Shown here piece by piece: positions 44,379 to 51,959 of a DNA stretch of 64,000 nucleotides. The position numbers and the translations under genes are program-made. Below the pieces are notes generated by a model. The model ran no database searches, was not told the origin of the DNA, and saw only the letters and a program-made list of their open reading frames with translations. The number at the start of each line of letters is the position of its first letter. Position 1 is the stretch's first letter. This stretch comes from an uncultured bacterium (GTDB lineage Bacteria > Acidobacteriota > Aminicenantia > UBA2199): assembly GCA_965603365.1 (NCBI GenBank), contig CBFDCR010000012.1, positions 21,935 to 85,934 of the forward strand. Direction: 5' to 3'.

Positions 44379-45428
44379 ATGGAATATACATGTGAGTTGC
44401 GGAGACAGGGGTTGTCGCCGGGGCGGTGTACGGTGAAGGAGAGGGGTACGGGGCGGCAGGGTCCGGCCTGTGAAATGACCCTCAAGAGCGAGGGCGGCGT
44501 GCTGCAGCGGTTGATCACCTCGGCCCACCTGTCGAGACCGGAACACTATTTTTCCATCTACCAGTCCGGCTGCAACATGGAGTGCCTCAAGTGCCACTCC
44601 TGGCGCTTCAGCCAGTATACGGAGGGGGAGTGGTACTCCGCCGCTGATATCCTGCGAATGGCAGGGGCGTATGCCCGGACAGTCACCTATGAGGAGCCGA
44701 AGGAGCGGGCCACCTCGTTCCATGCCCTGGACCTGTGCCGGGGCTGCGGTGCCTGTGTGCACCCGGACCGCCCCGGCGCCAAGGGGCCTTTGTGTCCCGG
44801 CAAAGTCGAGCCTTACCAGGTGGTCTTGAGTCCCCAGGGTTTTGGCCCGGCCCGAAACATCGTGGCCTTTACCGGCGGCGATGTCATGTGCCGTCCCGAT
44901 TTTTATGCCGACTGCGGCCGGAAGATAAAAGAGAACAACCTGCGCCTGTGGCTGCTGCTGGAGACCAACGGTTACGGTCTCACTCCCCAGAATCTCGATG
45001 TGTTGAAGGGGGCAGGCATCGATGCCTTCTGGCTGGACATCAAGGCCTTTGCTGCCGATGTCCACAAGAAACTGACCGGGGTCTCCAATGAGGGCATCTT
45101 GAAGTTACCGGCGGAGATGGTGAAGCGGGATTTTACCCTGGAGGTGTTGACGTTGTACATTCCCGGCTGGGTGGAGGCAGACCAGATCGGCCGCATTGCC
45201 GAAATCACGGCAGCGGTGGACAAAAACATCCCCTTCACCATCCTGGCCTTCTTCCCGGAATACAAGATGAAGCAGGTGACTTCCCCCACCCTGGATCAGA
45301 TGCTGGCCGCCTACGACGAAGTAAAGAAGACCGGCCTCCACCATGTCCGCCTGGCCAACCTGGGGGTATTCATCACCAGCGAAACCCAGATGGCCGCCCT
45401 CCTCTCCCATGCCCCCGACGCCGTTTAG
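44379..45428 (+). CDS. radical SAM protein (PFL-activase-related, function unknown)
   Basis: YQSGCNMECLKCHSW (CxxxCxxC) and FTGGDVM. Start uncertain (GTG 44355, ATG 44379 or ATG 44472). Confidence 0.7.
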   Translation: MEYTCELRRQGLSPGRCTVKERGTGRQGPACEMTLKSEGGVLQRLITSAHLSRPEHYFSIYQSGCNMECLKCHSWRFSQYTEGEWYSAADILRMAGAYARTVTYEEPKERATSFHALDLCRGCGACVHPDRPGAKGPLCPGKVEPYQVVLSPQGFGPARNIVAFTGGDVMCRPDFYADCGRKIKENNLRLWLLLETNGYGLTPQNLDVLKGAGIDAFWLDIKAFAADVHKKLTGVSNEGILKLPAEMVKRDFTLEVLTLYIPGWVEADQIGRIAEITAAVDKNIPFTILAFFPEYKMKQVTSPTLDQMLAAYDEVKKTGLHHVRLANLGVFITSETQMAALLSHAPDAV

Positions 45429-45515
45429 TTTACTTTACCCTATCTTAATGTTCCATCATCTTCATCTCAGTTTTTTTGGTTTACAGATTTTTTTGCCTGT
45501 CCCCTTTCGCCTCCC

Positions 45516-45719
45516 TTAAGTGATTTCTTTTACCAGTTGGATATTTTGCCTGATCAGTTTATTCACCATTGTTTCCACATCCATGCCCTTCCTGGCGGCT
45601 ATATCTTCAACAAACTTCCGAATATCCGGCTCCAGGTAAATCGGTAGATTCAATTTAACGTTCTTTCTATAAAATTTACCTCTTTCACCCTTAGAAAAAT
45701 CATACTCTTTTTGAATCAT
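45516..45719 (-). CDS. small antitoxin-like protein (RHH/CopG-like; EYDFSKGERGKFY N-terminus)
   Basis: 67 aa. This N-terminal motif is common in antitoxins encoded downstream of BrnT-type toxins. Lies directly downstream of a BrnT-like remnant. Confidence 0.5.
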   Translation of the reverse strand: MIQKEYDFSKGERGKFYRKNVKLNLPIYLEPDIRKFVEDIAARKGMDVETMVNKLIRQNIQLVKEIT

Positions 45720-45728
45720 AATATCTCC

Positions 45729-45785
45729 TCATATTGCCTTATCATGATCCCAATCGAAATCGTAATTGAATACTCTTTCAGCCAT
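45729..45785 (-). pseudogene. 18-codon remnant of a BrnT-like toxin gene
   Basis: Own translation MAERVFNYDFDWDHDKAI* matches the F-x-WD-x2-KA start of BrnT toxins, then stops. Confidence 0.45.
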
Positions 45786-45893
45786 TTTTCATATCCGCAA
45801 AATCAAGCACGCCTGAATATAGCATTTTCGTATTTATCACCTTATTATATATGATACACAAATTTTGCAATTGGTCAATATGGGACTCTCTTT

Positions 45894-46060
45894 TTGCCTG
45901 TCCCGTAAACTCTTGTTCATACAAAAATTAAACTCACCCCTTGATCCCCTCTCTTAAAAAGAGAGGGGAAATAAACTCCCCTTCTCTTTATAAGAGAAGG
46001 GGTTGGGGGATGAGTTAAGGAAGTTCGCTATTTTCATAGGAGCAAAAAAGGGACAGGCAA
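45894..46060. mobile_element. MITE-like double-hairpin element, copy A (TIR TTGCCTGTCCC / GGGACAGGCAA)
   Basis: Two perfect hairpins (CCCCTCTC-7 nt-GAGAGGGG at 45946-45968; CCCCTTCTCTT-tat-AAGAGAAGGGG at 45978-46002) between 11-bp terminal inverted repeats. The 92-nt core (45925-46016) equals the reverse complement of 50377-50468 except at 3 positions. Confidence 0.7.
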
Positions 46061-46061
46061 G

Positions 46062-46724
46062 AATATCATCCATAACCTGGATGATATTACATTGGACCGG
46101 AGATATGCCGCCATGTTGGGATATACCCAGGACGAACTGCACCGCTATTTTGATGACAGGATGGAGGCCTTCTGCAAACTAAAGGATTTTAAAAAAGAAG
46201 AACTGCAGGATGACATAAAATATTGGTACAATGGGTACTCCTGGGATGGCCAAAACTATGTATACAACCCCTTTTCGCTGCTGAAGTTTTTCCATAAAAG
46301 TCAATTTAGCAACTACTGGTTTGAGAGTGCCACCCCCTCTTTTTTAGTTAAACTCATCAAGGAAAAAGAGTACAGGGTACAGGATGTGGCCCAACTGGAG
46401 AACTATAAAGCCGGGGAATCGGTGTTTGAATCCTTTGAGATCGAAAAGATGAATGTGACGTCGCTGCTGTTTCAAACCGGTTATCTGACCATCCGGGAGA
46501 TCGAACCCATCGATCGCAATCGCAATAGAAGGCTTTATGTATTGTCCTACCCCAATATAGAAGTCAAAGAATCCTTTATGGAACACCTCCTGGCCGAGTT
46601 CTCCGAAAAATTCGCCGATAAAGTGAGTGTGATCATTTACGAGTTAAGGTGGAGCAAAAAGGGGCCAGGCAAATATCCCCCATTATTGAAAAAGAGAGTA
46701 GAATCTGATAATATAAGGCCGTGA
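46062..46724 (+). pseudogene. internal fragment of an AAA-ATPase-like/PD-(D/E)XK (PF09820-type) gene, truncated at both ends
   Basis: NIIHNLDDITLDRRYAAMLGYTQDEL...YNGYSWDG...YNPFSLLKFF...YWFESATPSFL... matches the middle of this family. There is no Walker A region and no C-terminal nuclease domain. Begins at the edge of MITE copy A. Confidence 0.6.
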
Positions 46725-46730
46725 TGTAAA

Positions 46731-47117
46731 ATGATTGACGTAAACAAACAGATTGAATATTGGACAGCAGGCGCGGAAGCTGATATTGATACAGCCGGAA
46801 TTTTAATAAAAAAGAGGAAATATCTTCATGGCCTTTTCTTTTGCCATTTAGCGATTGAAAAAATTATTAAAGCGAATGTGGCCAAAGGCACTCATCAGAC
46901 CCCACCCAAATCCCACAATTTATTTCGACTTTTAGAAGATGCCGGTATAGATATGGAGGATGAAAACATAGAGTTTCTTGGAATTTTGATGAAATATCAG
47001 TTGGAAGGAAGGTATCCGGATTATAGCCCCCAGGTTCCTGATAAGAAGACGGTAAGGGGATATTTTAGTAAAACCAGGGAGATGTTGATATGGCTAAAAA
47101 GGAAATTGTACGATTGA
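46731..47117 (+). CDS. HEPN-domain protein (toxin-type partner of a minimal nucleotidyltransferase)
   Basis: 128 aa, helical, with the EGRYPDY motif. Overlaps the following nucleotidyltransferase gene by 28 nt. Confidence 0.7.
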   Translation: MIDVNKQIEYWTAGAEADIDTAGILIKKRKYLHGLFFCHLAIEKIIKANVAKGTHQTPPKSHNLFRLLEDAGIDMEDENIEFLGILMKYQLEGRYPDYSPQVPDKKTVRGYFSKTREMLIWLKRKLYD

Positions 47118-47410
47118 TCCAGGAGTTGTTGAAACGTCTTTTCCAGGAAGGGATCTCTGTAGAGAAGGCTTTTTTATACGGCAGTCATGCCAGGGGAGAA
47201 GAGAATGAGGAGAGCGATATCGATATATTGCTGGTGTCTGCACTTTTTGATCAAAATGATGATCAGGTGGTGGGCAGGGCCTGGCGAATCAGTCGGTCCA
47301 TAGATCCCAGGCTTGAGCCCTATACCATGGGCAAAGAGAAATTTTCCAACGATCATATTTCGCCACTTATACAGATCGTAAAGAAAGAGGGCGTAGAGAT
47401 CCGGCTGTAG
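47090..47410 (+). CDS. minimal nucleotidyltransferase (MNT) domain protein
   Basis: YGSHARGEENEESDIDILLV (GSx10-11 DxD motif). 106 aa. Confidence 0.8.
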   Translation: MAKKEIVRLIQELLKRLFQEGISVEKAFLYGSHARGEENEESDIDILLVSALFDQNDDQVVGRAWRISRSIDPRLEPYTMGKEKFSNDHISPLIQIVKKEGVEIRL

Positions 47411-47458
47411 TTCCACCGATTTTCGAATTTGGCCCACCTGAGTTCCCAAATTTTCCAC

Positions 47459-47505
47459 CATAACCAATAAAATCTTGAAGGATTCATTTTGCTTTTTGCA
47501 TTGAA
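47459..47505. repeat. partial copy R4 (right half) of the palindromic heptamer-repeat element
   Basis: AACCAATAAAATCTTGAAGGATTCATTTTGCTTTTTGCATTG aligns with the inner unit of R2. Confidence 0.5.
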
Positions 47506-47569
47506 TAGCCCTCTACAGGCTTGACTTTTGGTGCTGGTTTTTAATAGAATGGGTTTTCAGGGGAAAAAT

Positions 47570-50317
47570 ATGAGTGTAATAGATTGGGCAGTGATTATGG
47601 GTTCCGGCGCCGCGGTGTTGAGTTGTCTTTTATTTCTTTACCAACTCTTGCGGCGTAAGAAAATCAAAAGAGATGAACTGGTCGCTCAGCGGGAAGCCAT
47701 ACACCTGTATAAGGAGAAGATGCTCAAGAAGGGCGCGCCCGTGTTGATGAAGGATTACCGGGAGGCACTGGCCAAAGAGTTGGGCACCGTCAACCTGTTT
47801 GGCCTGCGGCATTTCGATAATATCCCGGTGAAGCTGGATGAGGTGTTTGTACCCCTGCGCATTTCCGAAGCCTGGCGCAGCGAGTGGCGCTTCGATCCCC
47901 GCAAGCGTAAAAACAGGCAAGAGCTGGCCAGGTTTGAGTCCGGCGAGCGATCCTTTGCCCCGGCAGAGGTGATGCGCCGGGCCTTTAAAAAAGCCCCACT
48001 CTTACTGATCATCGGCGACCCCGGCTCCGGTAAGACCACCTTGTTGAAATACTATGCCATATCCTGCCTGGAAAACCGGCACAAACAACTGGGACTGCCT
48101 AAACATGTACTGCCCATCTTTCTTCCCCTGCGGGAACTGCAATTTGAAGGATCCCGTCCCATCCTGCTGTGGGAAAACCTGGCCCGGCGGCCAAAGACCG
48201 CTCTTTTAAATATTACCGCACGGGACTTTCGATACTGGATCCGGAACCGGCCCAGCCTGATCCTGCTGGACGGCCTGGATGAGATCAGCGACCTGGAGCG
48301 CCGCTGGGCCGCGTGTGAGTGGATCAAGCACCTCAGCGAGACCCTGCCAGAGGCCCGGTTCGTGGTCACGGCCCGGGGAACCGGCGTGCGCAAGGAAGAT
48401 CTGGTGGAACTGGAGTGCCGCCACTTGCGGGCGGATATCCTGGATTTTTCGCCGGAGCAGCAGGGGATATTTTTGAAGAGCTGGTTCCGCTCCGCGTTCC
48501 TGGAAGAACTGCCGGAAGAGGGGATAACGGAGCGGGCCTGGCAGGCGCAGCAGACCGGGGAGGCCGAGGCAAAGGCAAGAGAGATCATCGATTTTTTAAA
48601 TAAAAAGGAGAACCGGGGCATCCGCCAGTTGGCGGGCATACCCATGCTGCTGCAAATCATGGCAATTGTGTGGAAGGACCGGGAGTACCTGCCGGGCAGC
48701 CGCTTTGAACTGTATGATACTGCCCTGGATTACCTGCTGGATTACCGGGACCGCCGGCGGAAAATCAAGCCGCCGCTGCCGGTGGAAAGCAGCCGGCGGG
48801 TGCTGGAACCCACGGCCCTATGGATGCAGCTTGAAGAGCGAGATGAGGCCGAAAAGAGTGAATTCCATGAAAAAGCGGCGCCCATTTTAGAGACCATGAA
48901 AGAGCAGTTGTCGGCGGAGAAGTTTTGTGTCTATCTGCGGGACCGGGCCGGTCTGATCGCCGATTACGGGGAAGATCACTATATATTCCGCCACAAGTCT
49001 TTCCGGGAGTTCCTGACCGGCGCGCAGTTGCTCAAGGAGGGCCACCAGGAGGAGTGGCTGAAGACCCTGGTGGAGAATTTTAAACAGCCCTGGTGGGAAG
49101 AGGTGCTGCGTTTTTTCATGAGCAGTGCCGACGATAAAATCTTTGACCGCTTCATGCGCCTCTTCTTCCGCTCAGAGGTGAGCCGGTCCCTCACTGCCAA
49201 CCAGCAGATACTGCTTGAGAACCTGGTGCGGGAATCCCCCCAGTGGAAGGTGGATGGCCTGATCGACAGCCTGGAGGATACCGGTCTGAACCACAACCAG
49301 ATCCGCTGTGCACTGGATTGCCTGAAAACAATCGGTATCCCCCGGGCGATAGACGGCATCAAAGAAGCCGACAAAAGCAGTTGGAGCCAGGCCAACCGCA
49401 GCCATGCCGACGACATCGTGGCCGAAGCCACGGGTACACCGGCAAAACCGGCGATAGTAGATGAGGCGGCGCCCCCCTCTTTCCGCAACCCCTTCGAGGA
49501 CAACGTGGAGTACATCCTGATCCCCGGCAACACCTACACCTATTCGGTGTCGAAAAAAGAGGTCACTGTGCCGGACAGCTACTTCTGCAAATACCCGGTC
49601 ACCAACAAACGCTACCGCCGCTTCATGGCTTACCTCTCCAAAGAGGAAAAGGAACTGACCGGTGTGCTTCCCCTTGACCTGTTTGCTCCCAAACTGCGGA
49701 CATTTGCAGGCTCCATACAAGGGTTTCTGGAAAAGTCGGGCAAGCAGCCGGAAAAGTGGTTGAAGGCATTCCGTTCCCGGGCCGATGATGATCGACATTT
49801 TAACGGTCCCGACCAGCCGGTGGTAAGGATTAACTGGTATGCGGCCCGGGCCTACTGCTTCTGGCTTTCATGCATGGAAGCGGCCCAACAGGGAGATTTT
49901 AAGAACCGGGATGTCGATGCGGTTGCGTCTATTTACCGGCTGCCCCGTGAATGGGAGTGGGAGTGGGCCGCGGCCGGTCGCGAACCGGACGGCTCTTTAA
50001 GGGAGTACCCCTGGCCCAAAAACAAGGGAGAACCCACCCCGGAACTGGCCAATTACGGTAGAAATGTGATTACCACCACACCGGTGGGCCGCTACCCCGA
50101 TGGGGCCACGTCCGAGGGCTTAATGGACATGGCCGGCAATGTCTGGGAGTGGATGGAGAATTTAGATAAAGAATATGGGATTCCGGCGTTGCGCGGCGGC
50201 TCGTGGATCAACGGTAAGGTCAACCTCCGTTGTTCCGCCCGCAGCAACGCCAGCCTCATCACCCCTCGTGCCAAGTTCTACGGCATCGGTTTTCGTGTTG
50301 TGCGGTGCCAGTTTTAG
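47570..50317 (+). CDS. membrane-anchored NACHT (STAND) NTPase fused to a C-terminal FGE-sulfatase (SUMF1-like) domain
   Basis: N-terminal TM IMGSGAAVLSCLLFLYQLL, Walker A GDPGSGKTTLLKY, Walker B LILLDGLDE. C-terminus has PVVRINWYAARAYCFWLS, YRLPREWEWEWAA, MAGNVWEWM, RGGSW and GFRVVR. ATG 47570 follows AGGGGA; the track starts at TTG 47528. Confidence 0.8.
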   Translation: MSVIDWAVIMGSGAAVLSCLLFLYQLLRRKKIKRDELVAQREAIHLYKEKMLKKGAPVLMKDYREALAKELGTVNLFGLRHFDNIPVKLDEVFVPLRISEAWRSEWRFDPRKRKNRQELARFESGERSFAPAEVMRRAFKKAPLLLIIGDPGSGKTTLLKYYAISCLENRHKQLGLPKHVLPIFLPLRELQFEGSRPILLWENLARRPKTALLNITARDFRYWIRNRPSLILLDGLDEISDLERRWAACEWIKHLSETLPEARFVVTARGTGVRKEDLVELECRHLRADILDFSPEQQGIFLKSWFRSAFLEELPEEGITERAWQAQQTGEAEAKAREIIDFLNKKENRGIRQLAGIPMLLQIMAIVWKDREYLPGSRFELYDTALDYLLDYRDRRRKIKPPLPVESSRRVLEPTALWMQLEERDEAEKSEFHEKAAPILETMKEQLSAEKFCVYLRDRAGLIADYGEDHYIFRHKSFREFLTGAQLLKEGHQEEWLKTLVENFKQPWWEEVLRFFMSSADDKIFDRFMRLFFRSEVSRSLTANQQILLENLVRESPQWKVDGLIDSLEDTGLNHNQIRCALDCLKTIGIPRAIDGIKEADKSSWSQANRSHADDIVAEATGTPAKPAIVDEAAPPSFRNPFEDNVEYILIPGNTYTYSVSKKEVTVPDSYFCKYPVTNKRYRRFMAYLSKEEKELTGVLPLDLFAPKLRTFAGSIQGFLEKSGKQPEKWLKAFRSRADDDRHFNGPDQPVVRINWYAARAYCFWLSCMEAAQQGDFKNRDVDAVASIYRLPREWEWEWAAAGREPDGSLREYPWPKNKGEPTPELANYGRNVITTTPVGRYPDGATSEGLMDMAGNVWEWMENLDKEYGIPALRGGSWINGKVNLRCSARSNASLITPRAKFYGIGFRVVRCQF

Positions 50318-50337
50318 GGTCTCTGTTGGTACTCTGA

Positions 50338-50493
50338 TGCTCTGTCCATCTGAAACTCTGGTCCCGCGGCAGGTGCAACTCATCCCCCAACCCCTTCTCT
50401 TAGAAAGAGAAGGGGAGTGTATTTCCCCTCTCTTCTTAAGAGAGGGGATCAAGGGGTGAGTTTAATTTTTAAGGGAAACAAAACGGGACAGTC
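50338..50493. mobile_element. MITE-like double-hairpin element, copy B (inverted relative to copy A)
   Basis: The core 50377-50468 is the reverse complement of 45925-46016 (3 differences, located in hairpin loops or the linker). Degenerate end TGCTCTGTCC at 50338 and GGGACAG at 50485. Confidence 0.65.
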
Positions 50494-50513
50494 CAATTTC
50501 TCTACCACTATTT

Positions 50514-50618
50514 TCATTTTATTATAGAAGCTAAATACCGGGTTTTATCGACATAATAATAGTGTCCTGTCACAAATTTTTCATAGTCTGTCAGGCCATA
50601 AGGGATTTTTTTGATCAT
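50514..50618 (-). pseudogene. N-terminal fragment (34 codons) of an AAA-ATPase-like (PF09820-type) gene
   Basis: Own translation MIKKIPYGLTDYEKFVTGHYYYVDKTRYLASIIK* matches the family N-terminus (...Y[FY]VDKT.[YF]I). Lies 21 nt from MITE copy B. Confidence 0.55.
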
Positions 50619-50819
50619 CTTATCACGTATCTCCGCTAAGATTATATCCAATCTCCACCGCTATTGCAAACCCCGGCTAAAGATTTTGGGCGGGGGGTGA
50701 AAAATGTGGAAAAAATGGCCTGCTTCTATTGAAATACCGCTTTATTTCGTTTAAAATTCCTTTTTGGAGCCTCGTCGACTCAGAGGAATTTATTATTAAC
50801 GATGAAATAAGGAGGAATC

Positions 50820-51959
50820 GTGGATTATTTATTGACCGAAGAGCAAATGATGTTGCGGGACATGGTTGCCAAATTTGCCAAAAATGAGATCGGCCCCTGT
50901 GCCCGGGAAAACCAGGAGAAGGGAGAATTCCCGGCGGAGATTGTGAAAAAGGCCGGTGAACTGGGTTTGATGGGCGTGGCCTATCCGCCGGAGTACGGCG
51001 GGGCCGGCATGGATTATGTGTCGTATATGATCGCTATCGAGGAAATTTCCCGGTATTGTGCCTCCACCGGCGTGATCGTCTCGGCCCACTCTTCGCTGTC
51101 GGTGGACCCCATCTTCCGCTTTGGTACCGAGGAACAAAAGAAGAAATATTTGCCGGACATGTGTGCCGGTAAGAAGATCGGCTGCCTGGCCCTGACCGAG
51201 CCGGGGGCCGGTTCCGACGCCGGTGCTACCAAAACAACGGCTAAGCTTGAAGGTGATCATTGGGTGCTGAACGGCACCAAACAGTTTACCACCAACGGCA
51301 ACGAAGCGGAAGTGGCGGTCATTATCGCCTCCACCGATCCGGCCCAGAAGGCCCGCGGCATCAGTGCCTTTATCGTGGAAAAGGGAACACCCGGTTTCCG
51401 GGTGGGCAAGCTGGAACACAAACTGGGGATCAAAGCTACCTCCACGGCGGAATTTATCTTAGAGGAGTGCAAAATCCCCCAAGGGAACCTGCTGGGTGAG
51501 TTGAACAAAGGATTCAAGATCTCCATGATTACGTTGGACGGCGGCCGGTTGGGAATCGCCTCTCAGGCCCTGGGTATTGCCCGGGCCTCCATAGAGGATT
51601 CCATTCAATACGCCAAGGAACGGGAGCAGTTTGATCAGCCCATTGCCAGTTTCCAGGCCATCCAGTGGATGATTGCCGATATGTGGACCGAGTATGAGGC
51701 GGCCTGGCTGTTGACCTACCGGGCCTCTTTGATGAAGGATAAAGGTTTGCCCTATTCCAGGGAGGCGGCCATGGCCAAGCTCAAGGCCTCCGAAGTGGCC
51801 TCCTTTTGCGCCAACAAGGCGATTCAGATCCACGGCGGTTACGGCTACATCAAGGAATTTGATGTGGAGCGATACTTGCGGGATGCCAAAATCACCGAGA
51901 TTTACGAGGGCACCAGTGAAATCATGAGGCTGGTGATATCGGCGAGTCTGTTGAAATGA
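50820..51959 (+). CDS. acyl-CoA dehydrogenase (short/branched-chain type)
   Basis: GTG start behind AAGGAGG. LTEPGAGSD, QIHGGYGY, and IYEGTSEI near the C-terminus. Confidence 0.9.
   Translation: MDYLLTEEQMMLRDMVAKFAKNEIGPCARENQEKGEFPAEIVKKAGELGLMGVAYPPEYGGAGMDYVSYMIAIEEISRYCASTGVIVSAHSSLSVDPIFRFGTEEQKKKYLPDMCAGKKIGCLALTEPGAGSDAGATKTTAKLEGDHWVLNGTKQFTTNGNEAEVAVIIASTDPAQKARGISAFIVEKGTPGFRVGKLEHKLGIKATSTAEFILEECKIPQGNLLGELNKGFKISMITLDGGRLGIASQALGIARASIEDSIQYAKEREQFDQPIASFQAIQWMIADMWTEYEAAWLLTYRASLMKDKGLPYSREAAMAKLKASEVASFCANKAIQIHGGYGYIKEFDVERYLRDAKITEIYEGTSEIMRLVISASLLK

Follow-up and report, generated by a model that had tools for sequence, protein, structure and literature searches.

The window, a stretch of 64,000 nucleotides from an uncultured bacterium of the Aminicenantia, contains 5.4 kb of accessory DNA between a radical-SAM and an acyl-CoA dehydrogenase (ACAD) gene. 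This islet is most probably an accessory mosaic, in which gene-less doublets of a triplex-class repeat lie at the junctions and two PF09820 fragments were truncated independently of each other. Such a mosaic would be composed of a small RHH-like ORF, a HEPN-MNT pair, a NACHT-FGE gene and two unrelated dead PF09820/PDDEXK_9 fragments, and two gene-less doublets, named copy A and copy B, would sit at its junctions. The earlier story of a gene split by inversion is replaced by an ordinary one, namely dead fragments of two paralogues that lie in a junk-rich islet. The window is also a clean further example of an unexplained bacterial repeat class. The repeat unit, with 30 fixed bases, occurs in phyla very distant from one another, where it frames DUF559 nuclease genes.

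Anatomy of the inverted doublet pair

The arms at 45923-46016 and 50377-50470 form an inverted repeat of 94 nt which is 97% complementary, with 4360 nt between the arms; the inverted 92-nt cores described in the sequence-only reading are real. Copy A (45923..46016, plus strand) is an inverted doublet of a triplex-hairpin unit and does not contain an ORF. It begins with the lead AAAAATTA (45923-45930) and the third-strand box AACTCACCCC (45931-45940), which are followed by hairpin 1 with the stems CCCCTCTCTT/AAGAGAGGGG (45946-45968), a linker of 9 nt, hairpin 2 with the stems CCCCTTCTCTT/AAGAGAAGGGG (45978-46002) and a second box GGGGATGAGTT (46006-46016). Copy B (50377..50470, minus strand) is the reverse complement of this doublet. 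As already reported, it differs from copy A at three positions, located in loop 1, the linker and loop 2, and each copy has two perfect hairpins, which are 11 bp long. The predicted Watson-Crick fold of the DNA reaches -28.2 kcal/mol (z -7.0) for copy A and -29.3 kcal/mol (z -6.5) for copy B, and none of 200 shuffled sequences folded equally well. The doublet itself consists of one unit of about 42 nt in inverted repetition: the alignment of module 1 with reverse-complemented module 2 has a score of 20, and the shuffled controls have a mean of -6.6 and a maximum of 6.

The ITxF rule requires one stem of pyrimidines, one of purines and a third strand, allows the triplets G.G-C, A.A-T and T.A-T, and limits the stems to 6-15 nt and the loops to 1-6 nt with at most one mismatch (PMC4666352). 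In module 1 all 10 Watson-Crick pairs and all 10 triplets conform to the rule, and the loops measure 3 and 5 nt; module 2 reaches 11 of 11 for both, has loops of 3 and 3 nt and is longer by one position in each of the three strands, a coordinated insertion. Thirteen triplet rows were compiled from the units of the window and of its own genome, from DUF559-flank variants of relatives and from the TMECO pattern. Over these rows 118 of 124 triplets are allowed, and all 124 after register correction; with shuffled third strands the mean is 72 and the maximum 88 of 124. The perfect fit to the triplex rule together with the change coordinated across three strands is comparative evidence which argues for selection on the third strand. 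Judged by their sequence, copies A and B are purine-motif intrastrand-triplex repeats of the BoxC/PIT/TM class, the triplex being a predicted structure. Each unit would combine two arms, one of pyrimidines and the other of purines, with a G/T/A 'third strand' box, and in the doublet the two boxes could also pair with each other and close a three-way junction.

A profile search of the own genome (nhmmer) revealed 6 doublets and about 12 singlets in 5.3 Mb. Under random placement two doublets are found within 4.5 kb with P ~0.025, or P ~0.013 if inverted orientation is also required. The worry raised earlier, that a very abundant element would produce the bracket by chance, was checked in this way; as there are only 6 doublets, the bracket is not expected from abundance alone. 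The two copies share 96.5% identity, copy A and a doublet on contig C8 98.8%, and copy B and a doublet on contig C76 97.6%, which rules out that A and B are each other's nearest relatives. None of 24 relatives, two same-genus genomes among them, yielded the 94-nt element, and the exact 38-mer unit gave no match in the genome contigs searched.

Both copies had also been described as having TTGCCTGTCCC-type ends, which does not hold. Copy A is accompanied by the exact 11-mer on both sides (45894-45904 on the plus strand, 46050-46060 on the minus strand), copy B has only the degenerate GGGACAGTCC outside, and on its inner side there is no TTGCCTGTCCC-type 11-mer, not even a degenerate one. The genome contains 34 exact copies of TTGCCTGTCCC compared to about 2.5 expected, and 80 copies of the 14-mer TTTTTGCCTGTCCC with at most one mismatch, most of them away from hairpin elements. 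TTGCCTGTCCC was therefore rejected as terminus of the element, and TTGCCTGTCCC/TTTTTGCCTGTCCC is regarded as an independent abundant motif. One copy of TTTTTGCCTGTCCC lies on the outer side of copy A (45891..45904, plus strand). Another one (45490..45503, plus strand) is located just beyond the stop codon of the minus-strand RHH-like ORF; the 'solo end' reported near 45493-45503 is this copy, one among many.

Spread of the unit and its DUF559 neighbours

The unit pattern was found in more than 118 genome stretches from many phyla and in at least 120 metagenome contigs. Within 160 nt, 104 of the 238 unit sites are closed by a GGRTGAGT box, and 37 of these 104 are true doublets. The top cluster of neighbouring ORFs comprises 21 loci at a median distance of 10 nt from the unit and is assigned to PF04480 (DUF559, E 1e-29 to 1e-33), a family of Vsr-like PD-(D/E)xK nucleases; 18 of the 21 loci lie within 150 nt, compared to a background of 21%. 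The DUF559 genes have a flank of the module-1 type on the 5' side and one of the module-1 or module-2 type on the 3' side. Elsewhere, unit variants are often the left and right ends of cassettes of about 0.5 kb, in which DUF559 is the only gene. Since the same two unit variants end such cassettes in many bacteria, copies A and B are best read as relatives of the DUF559 cassettes, and would be non-autonomous (MITE- or REPIN-like) ones. Between the inverted units of copies A and B a DUF559 ORF is absent, and only the linker is found there.

The DUF559 loci were gathered with the unit as search pattern, and two observations are independent of it. Eight of nine DUF559 genes which were identified in relatives by protein family alone have box-plus-hairpin flanks, and the only DUF559 gene of the own genome, which lies at 6028-6411 on contig C4, is accompanied by two variant units upstream and three inverted ones downstream. 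The variant flanking that gene differs from the window type, and for the window-type family no cognate DUF559 gene was detected in the assembly, which is 85% complete. The about 24 units in this genome are thus in an 'orphan' state, which bears on the question if the nuclease drives the repeats or merely rides along. As the window-type family lacks a cognate gene here, this family may be inactive, or else the nuclease may travel with the repeats as a passenger. Among the matching open-access papers listed, an association between DUF559 and such repeats is described in none by title and abstract.

The repeats may move or be moved, and the DUF559 nuclease may act on them. A more far-reaching proposal is that DUF559 proteins are the missing partners of the BoxC/TM-class repeats in a REP-RAYT-like but PD-(D/E)xK-based system, and that the doublets are non-autonomous derivatives which spread across phyla and seed breakpoints. 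We consider this proposal tentative and on the whole unlikely. If it were true, DUF559 and the BoxC/TM repeats would form a second REP-RAYT-like system, built on a PD-(D/E)xK enzyme, and the doublets would seed breakpoints at which nearby genes become truncated and accessory DNA builds up.

The islet, its PF09820 fragments and the explanations of the locus

The HEPN/MNT and NACHT genes are carried between the two copies, as the sequence-only reading had stated. The HEPN domain gene (46731..47117, plus strand, E 7e-16) overlaps by 28 nt with the gene of its partner MNT, a minimal nucleotidyltransferase (47090..47410, plus strand). The NACHT (STAND NTPase) gene follows at 47528..50317 on the plus strand and encodes a C-terminal FGE-sulfatase/C-type-lectin-fold domain. 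Its paralogues are found on contigs C14 (53% aa identity) and C105 (85% over residues 9-463). Downstream of NACHT-FGE a region of 59 nt (50318..50376, plus strand) is conserved with the 3' regions of paralogues on contigs C14 and C4, and this similarity ends exactly at the inner edge of copy B (50376/50377). The C-terminus of NACHT-FGE was also considered as a target of a DGR and rejected; the only intact RT is of the group II intron type, and the only matches to its 3' end are paralogous genes.

On the left side of the islet a small ORF of 67 aa (45516..45719, minus strand) with a weak ribbon-helix-helix match (E 0.009) lies in low-GC DNA. The GC content is mosaic, with 37-43% on the left and 57-61% in NACHT-FGE. 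Orthologues of the acyl-CoA dehydrogenase (79%) occur only in the relatives G021 and G004, where the neighbours are not conserved, and the radical-SAM gene has no match in relatives at E 1e-60. A search for synteny or an empty site in relatives did not recover an ancestral state.

Both PF09820 fragments are remnants of one two-domain family, PF09820 (AAA-ATPase_like) plus PF08011 (PDDEXK_9), but of two parent subfamilies of unlike length. The first, fragN (50517..50618, minus strand), is a type B pseudogene remnant of 34 codons (residues ~6-39), whose reading ends at a stop at 50514-50516. The N-terminal remnant noticed before outside copy B is indeed PF09820 (50618-50517, Pfam positions 1-28, E 5e-6). 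The second, fragM (46062..~46655, plus strand), is a type A remnant (residues ~200-388); it is the mid-gene fragment noticed before, which starts at 46062/46068 and abuts the inner flank of copy A. It corresponds to the linker that joins the ATPase-like domain to PDDEXK_9 and includes neither domain itself, and neither fragment keeps a complete domain. On a homologue of 516 aa fragN covers residues 1-34 and fragM ~200-388 without overlap, which leaves about 165 codons between them, close to the 170 estimated earlier; the parent of fragM is in addition without its last ~130 codons. On both sides fragM is bounded by a 22-nt motif. The copy GGAGCAAAAAAGGGACAGGCAA (46039..46060, plus strand), which is the TTTTTGCCTGTCCC motif reversed, lies between copy A and fragM and is a 91% direct repeat of the second copy GGAGCAAAAAGGGGCCAGGCAA (46651..46672, plus strand), which is placed exactly at the end of the fragM homology. 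Copies resembling this motif punctuate toxin-antitoxin-like cassettes on contig C105.

For comparison a panel of 14 full-length PF09820+PF08011 proteins was used, 8 of type A (~520 aa) and 6 of type B (~600 aa). At the N-terminus, proteins of one type share 58-63% identity (minimum 42) and proteins of different types 33% (maximum 42); over the stretch matching fragM the subfamilies share 25%. FragN has 59% identity with type B and 32% with type A (maximum 36); for fragM the values are 55% with type A and 23% with type B. The types of N-terminus and middle coincide in all 14 panel proteins (BLASTP, alignment identities), and the best genomic matches of both fragments in five related genomes are disjoint gene sets. 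Because their subfamily types differ and such types always coincide in the panel, fragN and fragM are not one split gene; these identities identify them as two independent pseudogene remnants of different gene copies. The own genome contains at least 10 copies of the PF09820 family plus several other fragments (tblastn), so that two unrelated remnants in a junk-rich islet are unremarkable. No more remnants of either gene were found above noise within 45300-51000.

These results bear directly on the model of insertion, deletion and inversion proposed in the sequence-only reading, by which the element inserted into one PF09820 gene, about 170 codons were lost and recombination between the inverted copies then placed the two parts on different strands. 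The geometry of that model stands: if 46017-50376 is inverted, fragN, an element and fragM follow one another from N to C along a single strand, the residue ranges do not overlap, and stretches of up to ~34 nt are identical between the arms, a length which is in principle enough for homologous recombination. However, the inversion would join pieces of two different genes and, as fragN and fragM stem from two gene copies, no gene would be restored by it. The match of the fragments to different paralogues is the very outcome that had been named beforehand as refuting, and an origin from one gene is extremely unlikely in view of the panel and of the many paralogues. The inverted pair could also be functional, either as the ends of a composite element which brought the HEPN/MNT and NACHT-FGE islet or as borders of an invertible segment for phase variation. 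The low chance probability of the bracket, the module-1 side that faces outward in both copies, the accessory, defence-type and compositionally mosaic DNA enclosed, and the enrichment of DUF559 genes among predicted inversion targets (PMC9881135) would agree with such a role. We nevertheless hold it to be improbable: the doublets on C8 and C76 resemble A and B at least as closely as A and B resemble each other, the NACHT-FGE paralogues on contigs C14, C4 and C105 are not bracketed by doublets, no promoter or gene is split for switching, and both adjoining fragments are dead. Nor was a second arrangement found by exact look-ups of the HEPN and ACAD proteins in other assemblies or by the 32-mer of the outer junction of copy A in metagenome contigs, which all gave no match in collections that may lack the window's own genome.

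It is very improbable that we are dealing with ordinary REP/REPIN repeats for which a RAYT (Y1 transposase) provides the enzyme, or simply with terminator or mRNA-stabilising hairpins. An inverted palindromic doublet with additional singlets is the REPIN architecture as outlined in PMC3337134, two Y1_Tnp-like genes are present in the genome, and copy B lies 59 nt beyond a stop codon. However, no units are located near the Y1_Tnp hits on contigs C101 and C16, for which reason a RAYT partner was rejected, and the recurrent neighbour across phyla is DUF559 and not a Y1 transposase. The hairpins are not followed by a T-run, no Rfam family fits the element (miRNA hairpin models stay sub-threshold with 22-37 bits at cut-offs of 68-230), and a plain hairpin role leaves the conserved third-strand box and the three-way co-variation unexplained. 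In the mosaic that we prefer, each PF09820 fragment would have been truncated separately, each beside a repeat. This fits the published link of the repeat class to locally rearranged DNA (PMC4666352), and the repeats may have caused the truncations with which they are associated.

Comparison with known systems

Correia elements are an example of bacterial MITEs. The term MITE-like, which had been chosen from the sequence alone, suits the present element in that it is small (~90-190 bp with a core of 86-94 nt), has terminal inverted repeats (termini AACTCAYCCC), exists in several near-identical copies, has no coding capacity and shares its ends with longer gene-carrying elements, here the DUF559 cassettes of many phyla. 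Unlike in bacterial MITEs, no target-site duplication is visible in the flanks of the 6 doublets, the gene of the longer relatives is no known transposase (DUF559 is not a demonstrated one), and the unit sequence is conserved across phyla, something uncommon among MITEs. As neither a target-site duplication nor an empty site was found, mobility is suggested rather than demonstrated.

The REPIN/RAYT system, as outlined by Bertels and Rainey (PMC3337134), is similar in its palindromic unit, which is spread over the genome as inverted doublets and decayed singlets, in its small gene of nuclease type, which as a rule is present once and framed by inverted units, and in having its own unit variant per lineage. 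It differs from that outline that the gene here is DUF559 (PD-(D/E)xK, Vsr-like) instead of an HUH Y1 transposase, that a third-strand box is present, and that the window-type units are without a cognate gene in this genome.

The closest structural likeness is to the BoxC/PIT/TM repeats, for which BoxC and Hoyne et al. 2000 are cited as earlier work in PMC4666352. Common to both are three consecutive tracts, two stems (one pyrimidine, one purine) and a G-rich third strand, with stems of 10-11 nt and loops of 3-5 nt in the window, as well as multi-copy, intergenic occurrence as single units or palindromic pairs. The copy number differs between relatives, and the sites lie in rearranged, variable DNA; Holder et al. 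2015 (PMC4666352) report more rearrangement at TM loci than at control sites. The TMECO pattern CCCTCNCCC-N3-6-GGGNGAGGG-N3-GGGNGAGGG is not matched by the stems of the window, CCCCTCTCTT / AAGAGAGGGG / GGGGTGAGTT. By these stems the window units are members of the BoxC/TM structural class but of a different sequence family from TMECO. In contrast to the TM motif, which PMC4666352 ties to no protein, the units here and in other phyla frame DUF559 genes.

The inverted pair and the genes it brackets

The two copies of the repeat form the arms of an inverted repeat, 45923-46016 (copy A) and 50377-50470 (copy B); each arm has 94 nt, the two are 97% complementary, and 4360 nt separate them. What the sequence-only reading had observed in this region was largely confirmed. 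Of the three differences between the arms, one lies in each hairpin loop and one in the linker, as it had claimed, and each copy folds as single-stranded DNA into the two perfect hairpins it had described, with 11 bp each. In these folds an outer stem closes both hairpins in copies A and B, and their respective energies are -28.2 kcal/mol (z -7.0) and -29.3 kcal/mol (z -6.5), the z values being relative to dinucleotide shuffles. The HEPN/MNT and NACHT genes are indeed located within the bracket, namely a HEPN gene (46731-47117), an MNT gene overlapping it (47090-47410) and a gene for a 929-aa protein with NACHT and FGE-sulfatase domains (NACHT-FGE, 47528-50317).

For six doublets placed randomly in 5.3 Mb, a pair no more than 4.5 kb apart has P ~0.025, or ~0.013 if it is also inverted, these values being post-hoc and such repeats being clustered in variable DNA. 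Neither copy has the other as its closest relative, and comparable bracketing was absent at the paralogous NACHT-FGE genes. Recombination between the arms would be mechanistically possible. Exact look-ups of the HEPN and ACAD proteins and a search of the outer junction of copy A against metagenome contigs found no other assembly of the locus.

The inner edge of copy B is a true breakpoint, because similarity to the NACHT-FGE paralogues ends at 50376/50377. The end of the gene and 59 nt downstream of it are conserved with the paralogues on contigs C14 (92%) and C4 (88%) of the same genome. This paralogous family comprises window 47528-50376, C14:79300-81896, C4:73440-73786 and C105:12610-13941. 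The closest member is the one on C105 (85% aa identity over residues 9-463), which extends past the contig end; C105 also has a 47-nt stretch identical to the right flank of copy A. A DGR targeting the C-terminus of NACHT-FGE was considered and rejected: the only intact reverse transcriptase is of the group II intron type and there is no template repeat. This 439-aa protein with maturase-type motifs is encoded at C31:48157-48846, and a second RT fragment is found on C79.

The stretch at 45.4-47.6 kb has 37-43% GC and NACHT-FGE has 57-61%, with a genome average of 49%. The low-GC block (45400-47600), which spans an RHH-like ORF, copy A, the mid-gene fragment fragM and HEPN-MNT, adjoins the GC-rich NACHT-FGE gene, and the islet is therefore a mosaic of different origins.

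The proposal that TTGCCTGTCCC marks the element ends was rejected, as it has 34 exact genomic copies and TTTTTGCCTGTCCC occurs in contexts of its own. The 14-mer TTTTTGCCTGTCCC (reverse complement GGGACAGGCAAAAA) is present in 80 genomic copies with at most one mismatch, its 11-mer core in the 34 exact ones named above. In the window, four sites lie within 1.2 kb: 45490-45503 just past the RHH-like ORF, 45891-45904, and 46039-46060 and 46651-46672, which pair as a 22-nt direct repeat and bound fragM on both sides. On C105 the 22-mer punctuates toxin-antitoxin-like cassettes, e.g. at C105:498-519 and C105:2480-2501. The motif often marks the boundaries of such small cassettes. Several extended sub-families exist; one of them, ATTTTAAATAGGATTAAAGATTTTTGCCTGGCCCTAATCCGTTTCAC, recurs on at least six contigs and resembles the terminus of a further repeat or IS. 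CTGTCCC was counted in the flanks of about 6/16 hairpin loci, so both repeat types co-occur in junk-rich intergenic DNA.

Two fragments of PF09820-family genes

Both gene fragments reported beside the repeats are real. An N-terminal PF09820 piece of 34 codons (fragN) lies at 50618-50517 on the minus strand, and fragM, of about 195 codons, occupies 46062 to about 46655 of the plus strand. They had been taken for pieces of one gene split by inversion. That explanation is refuted, since each matches different paralogues, the outcome named beforehand as refuting it. The full-length panel (n=14) consists of eight type A proteins (~520 aa, start MKKLPIGIQTFS) and six type B proteins (~600 aa, start IKKIPYGLADYE), both with PF09820 followed by PF08011. 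Identity in the N-terminal stretch is 58-63% within a type (minimum 42) and 33% between types (maximum 42). fragN belongs with type B (59%, versus 32% with a maximum of 36 to type A), and fragM with type A (55%, versus 23% to type B).

The same division is seen among the paralogues of the own genome, where fragN is 53-61% identical to copies on C21, C23, C25 and C139 and only 35% to those on C6 and C20, while fragM is 48-51% identical to copies on C6, C20 and C87 and gives nothing significant with the others. Across five related genomes, fragM is best matched (56-65%) by genes for ~476-550 aa in the relative G021 (C128, C75, C327, C385 and C66), which match fragN at just 31-38%, near the foot of its list; the best matches of fragN (65-71%) are genes for ~570-670 aa that are wholly missing from the fragM list. 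fragM corresponds to residues ~200-388 of a 516-aa homologue, and has no Pfam match because it covers the linker between both domains. No further remnants of either gene were found in the islet. fragN and fragM are independent relics.

This genome has at least ten PF09820 loci and several fragments, and its relatives have up to about 68. PF09820+PF08011 genes are greatly expanded here and in the relatives G017, G021 and G006, where they fall into a ~520-aa and a ~600-aa class and include many truncated copies; about 14 places were counted in this genome, about 35 in G021, and G017 has about 68.

The repeat unit and its DUF559 neighbour

A genome-wide survey placed the core at about 18 sites. 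Module 2, taken in reverse complement, is a variant of module 1 (alignment score 20; shuffled mean -6.6, maximum 6), which makes each double hairpin an inverted doublet of a single ~42-nt unit. With an nhmmer profile of the unit, six doublets were found in the own genome, two of them on C12 and the others on C8, C74, C76 and C91, besides about 12 singlets. Two singlets, C44:24882-25037 and C66:18201-18352, resemble each other over ~80 nt of left flank, where a paralogous gene begins, so that unit and gene start were duplicated together at least once. A RAYT partner was rejected, as neither of the two Y1_Tnp genes has units close by, and so was a known RNA family as identity of the element.

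None of 24 relatives, two of them from the same genus, yielded the 94-nt element, and the exact 38-mer unit had no match among contigs of one genome per species. A relaxed pattern with spacer and loop free and 30 bases fixed matched more than 118 genome stretches and at least 120 metagenome contigs. Among the matches listed, the host phyla are CPR/Patescibacteria, Bacteroidota, Ignavibacteriota, Zixibacteria, Cloacimonadota and Calditrichota, with further hosts in Nitrospirota, Spirochaetota, Gammaproteobacteria, Clostridia and others; in the same set a GGRTGAGT box closes the unit within 160 nt in 104/238 cases (chance about 0.005 per site) and a second hairpin resembling module 2 is present in 37. 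Tandem or multiple copies within a few kb were seen in a Gammaproteobacteria MAG (L099, direct repeats at 46-nt spacing), an Ignavibacteria MAG (L109) and a Patescibacteria MAG (L084), thus the unit arrangement differs between lineages.

All ORFs within 2.5 kb of a unit were clustered across the relaxed-pattern loci. Among the matches listed, a ~125-aa protein forms the top cluster; it occurs in 21 loci, a median of 10 nt away from the unit, and was assigned to DUF559/PF04480 with a Vsr-like PD-(D/E)xK fold (E 1e-29 to 1e-33), and 18 of the 21 ORFs lie within 150 nt of a unit, compared to 21% of all neighbour ORFs. Usually a module-1-type unit is located 5' and an inverted unit 3', the latter in several loci being the CCCCTTCTCTT...GGATGAGTT variant which forms module 2 of the window. 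Since the unit itself had served to retrieve these loci, a reverse check was run in which DUF559 genes of the relatives were found solely by protein family. Of the nine genes obtained, eight are flanked by a box plus pyrimidine/purine hairpin, each with its own sequence variant; the ninth (L284) has the hairpin and no clear box. The gene-carrying relatives of the window doublets encode DUF559.

Variant units flank the only DUF559 gene of the own genome (C4:6028-6411), two of them upstream and three, inverted, downstream (C4:5880-6580). They are of the form ACACACCCC...CCCCTCTCAAGAGGGG, of which just three dispersed copies exist, and their second loop is a 16-nt mini-hairpin. The window-type family (about 24 units) has no cognate DUF559 gene in this 85%-complete assembly, and because it is an orphan in this genome, caution is needed over a nuclease acting on the repeats. 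A 'DUF559 domain-containing protein' was enriched among predicted inversion targets with an odds ratio of 14.3 (Milman et al. 2023, PMC9881135). No description of the DUF559-repeat association was found in the open-access literature.

Comparison with triplex-hairpin repeats

Intrastrand-triplex repeats (BoxC/PIT/TM) are defined by a pyrimidine stem, loop, purine stem, loop and third strand, with G.G-C, A.A-T or T.A-T as allowed triplets, stems of 6-15 nt and loops of 1-6 nt (Holder et al. 2015, PMC4666352). On the appropriate strand, module 1 reads CCCCTCTCTT-TTT-AAGAGAGGGG-ATCAA-GGGGTGAGTT and reaches 10/10 both for Watson-Crick pairs and for allowed triplets. Module 2 has one additional position in all three strands and reaches 11/11 for both. 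The unit variants at other DUF559 genes also satisfy the rule. In 13 rows tested, 118/124 triplets are allowed, or 124/124 after one register correction; shuffled third strands gave a mean of 72 (maximum 88) and the parallel reading 62. The suggestion of MITE-like elements is upheld and refined: copies A and B are inverted doublets, lacking a gene, of a predicted triplex-hairpin repeat of the BoxC/TM class. Compared with control intergenic sites, TM loci are reported to be markedly more rearranged among E. coli strains (PMC4666352). The window units do not match the TMECO sequence pattern, and therefore share the structural class while forming another sequence family within it.
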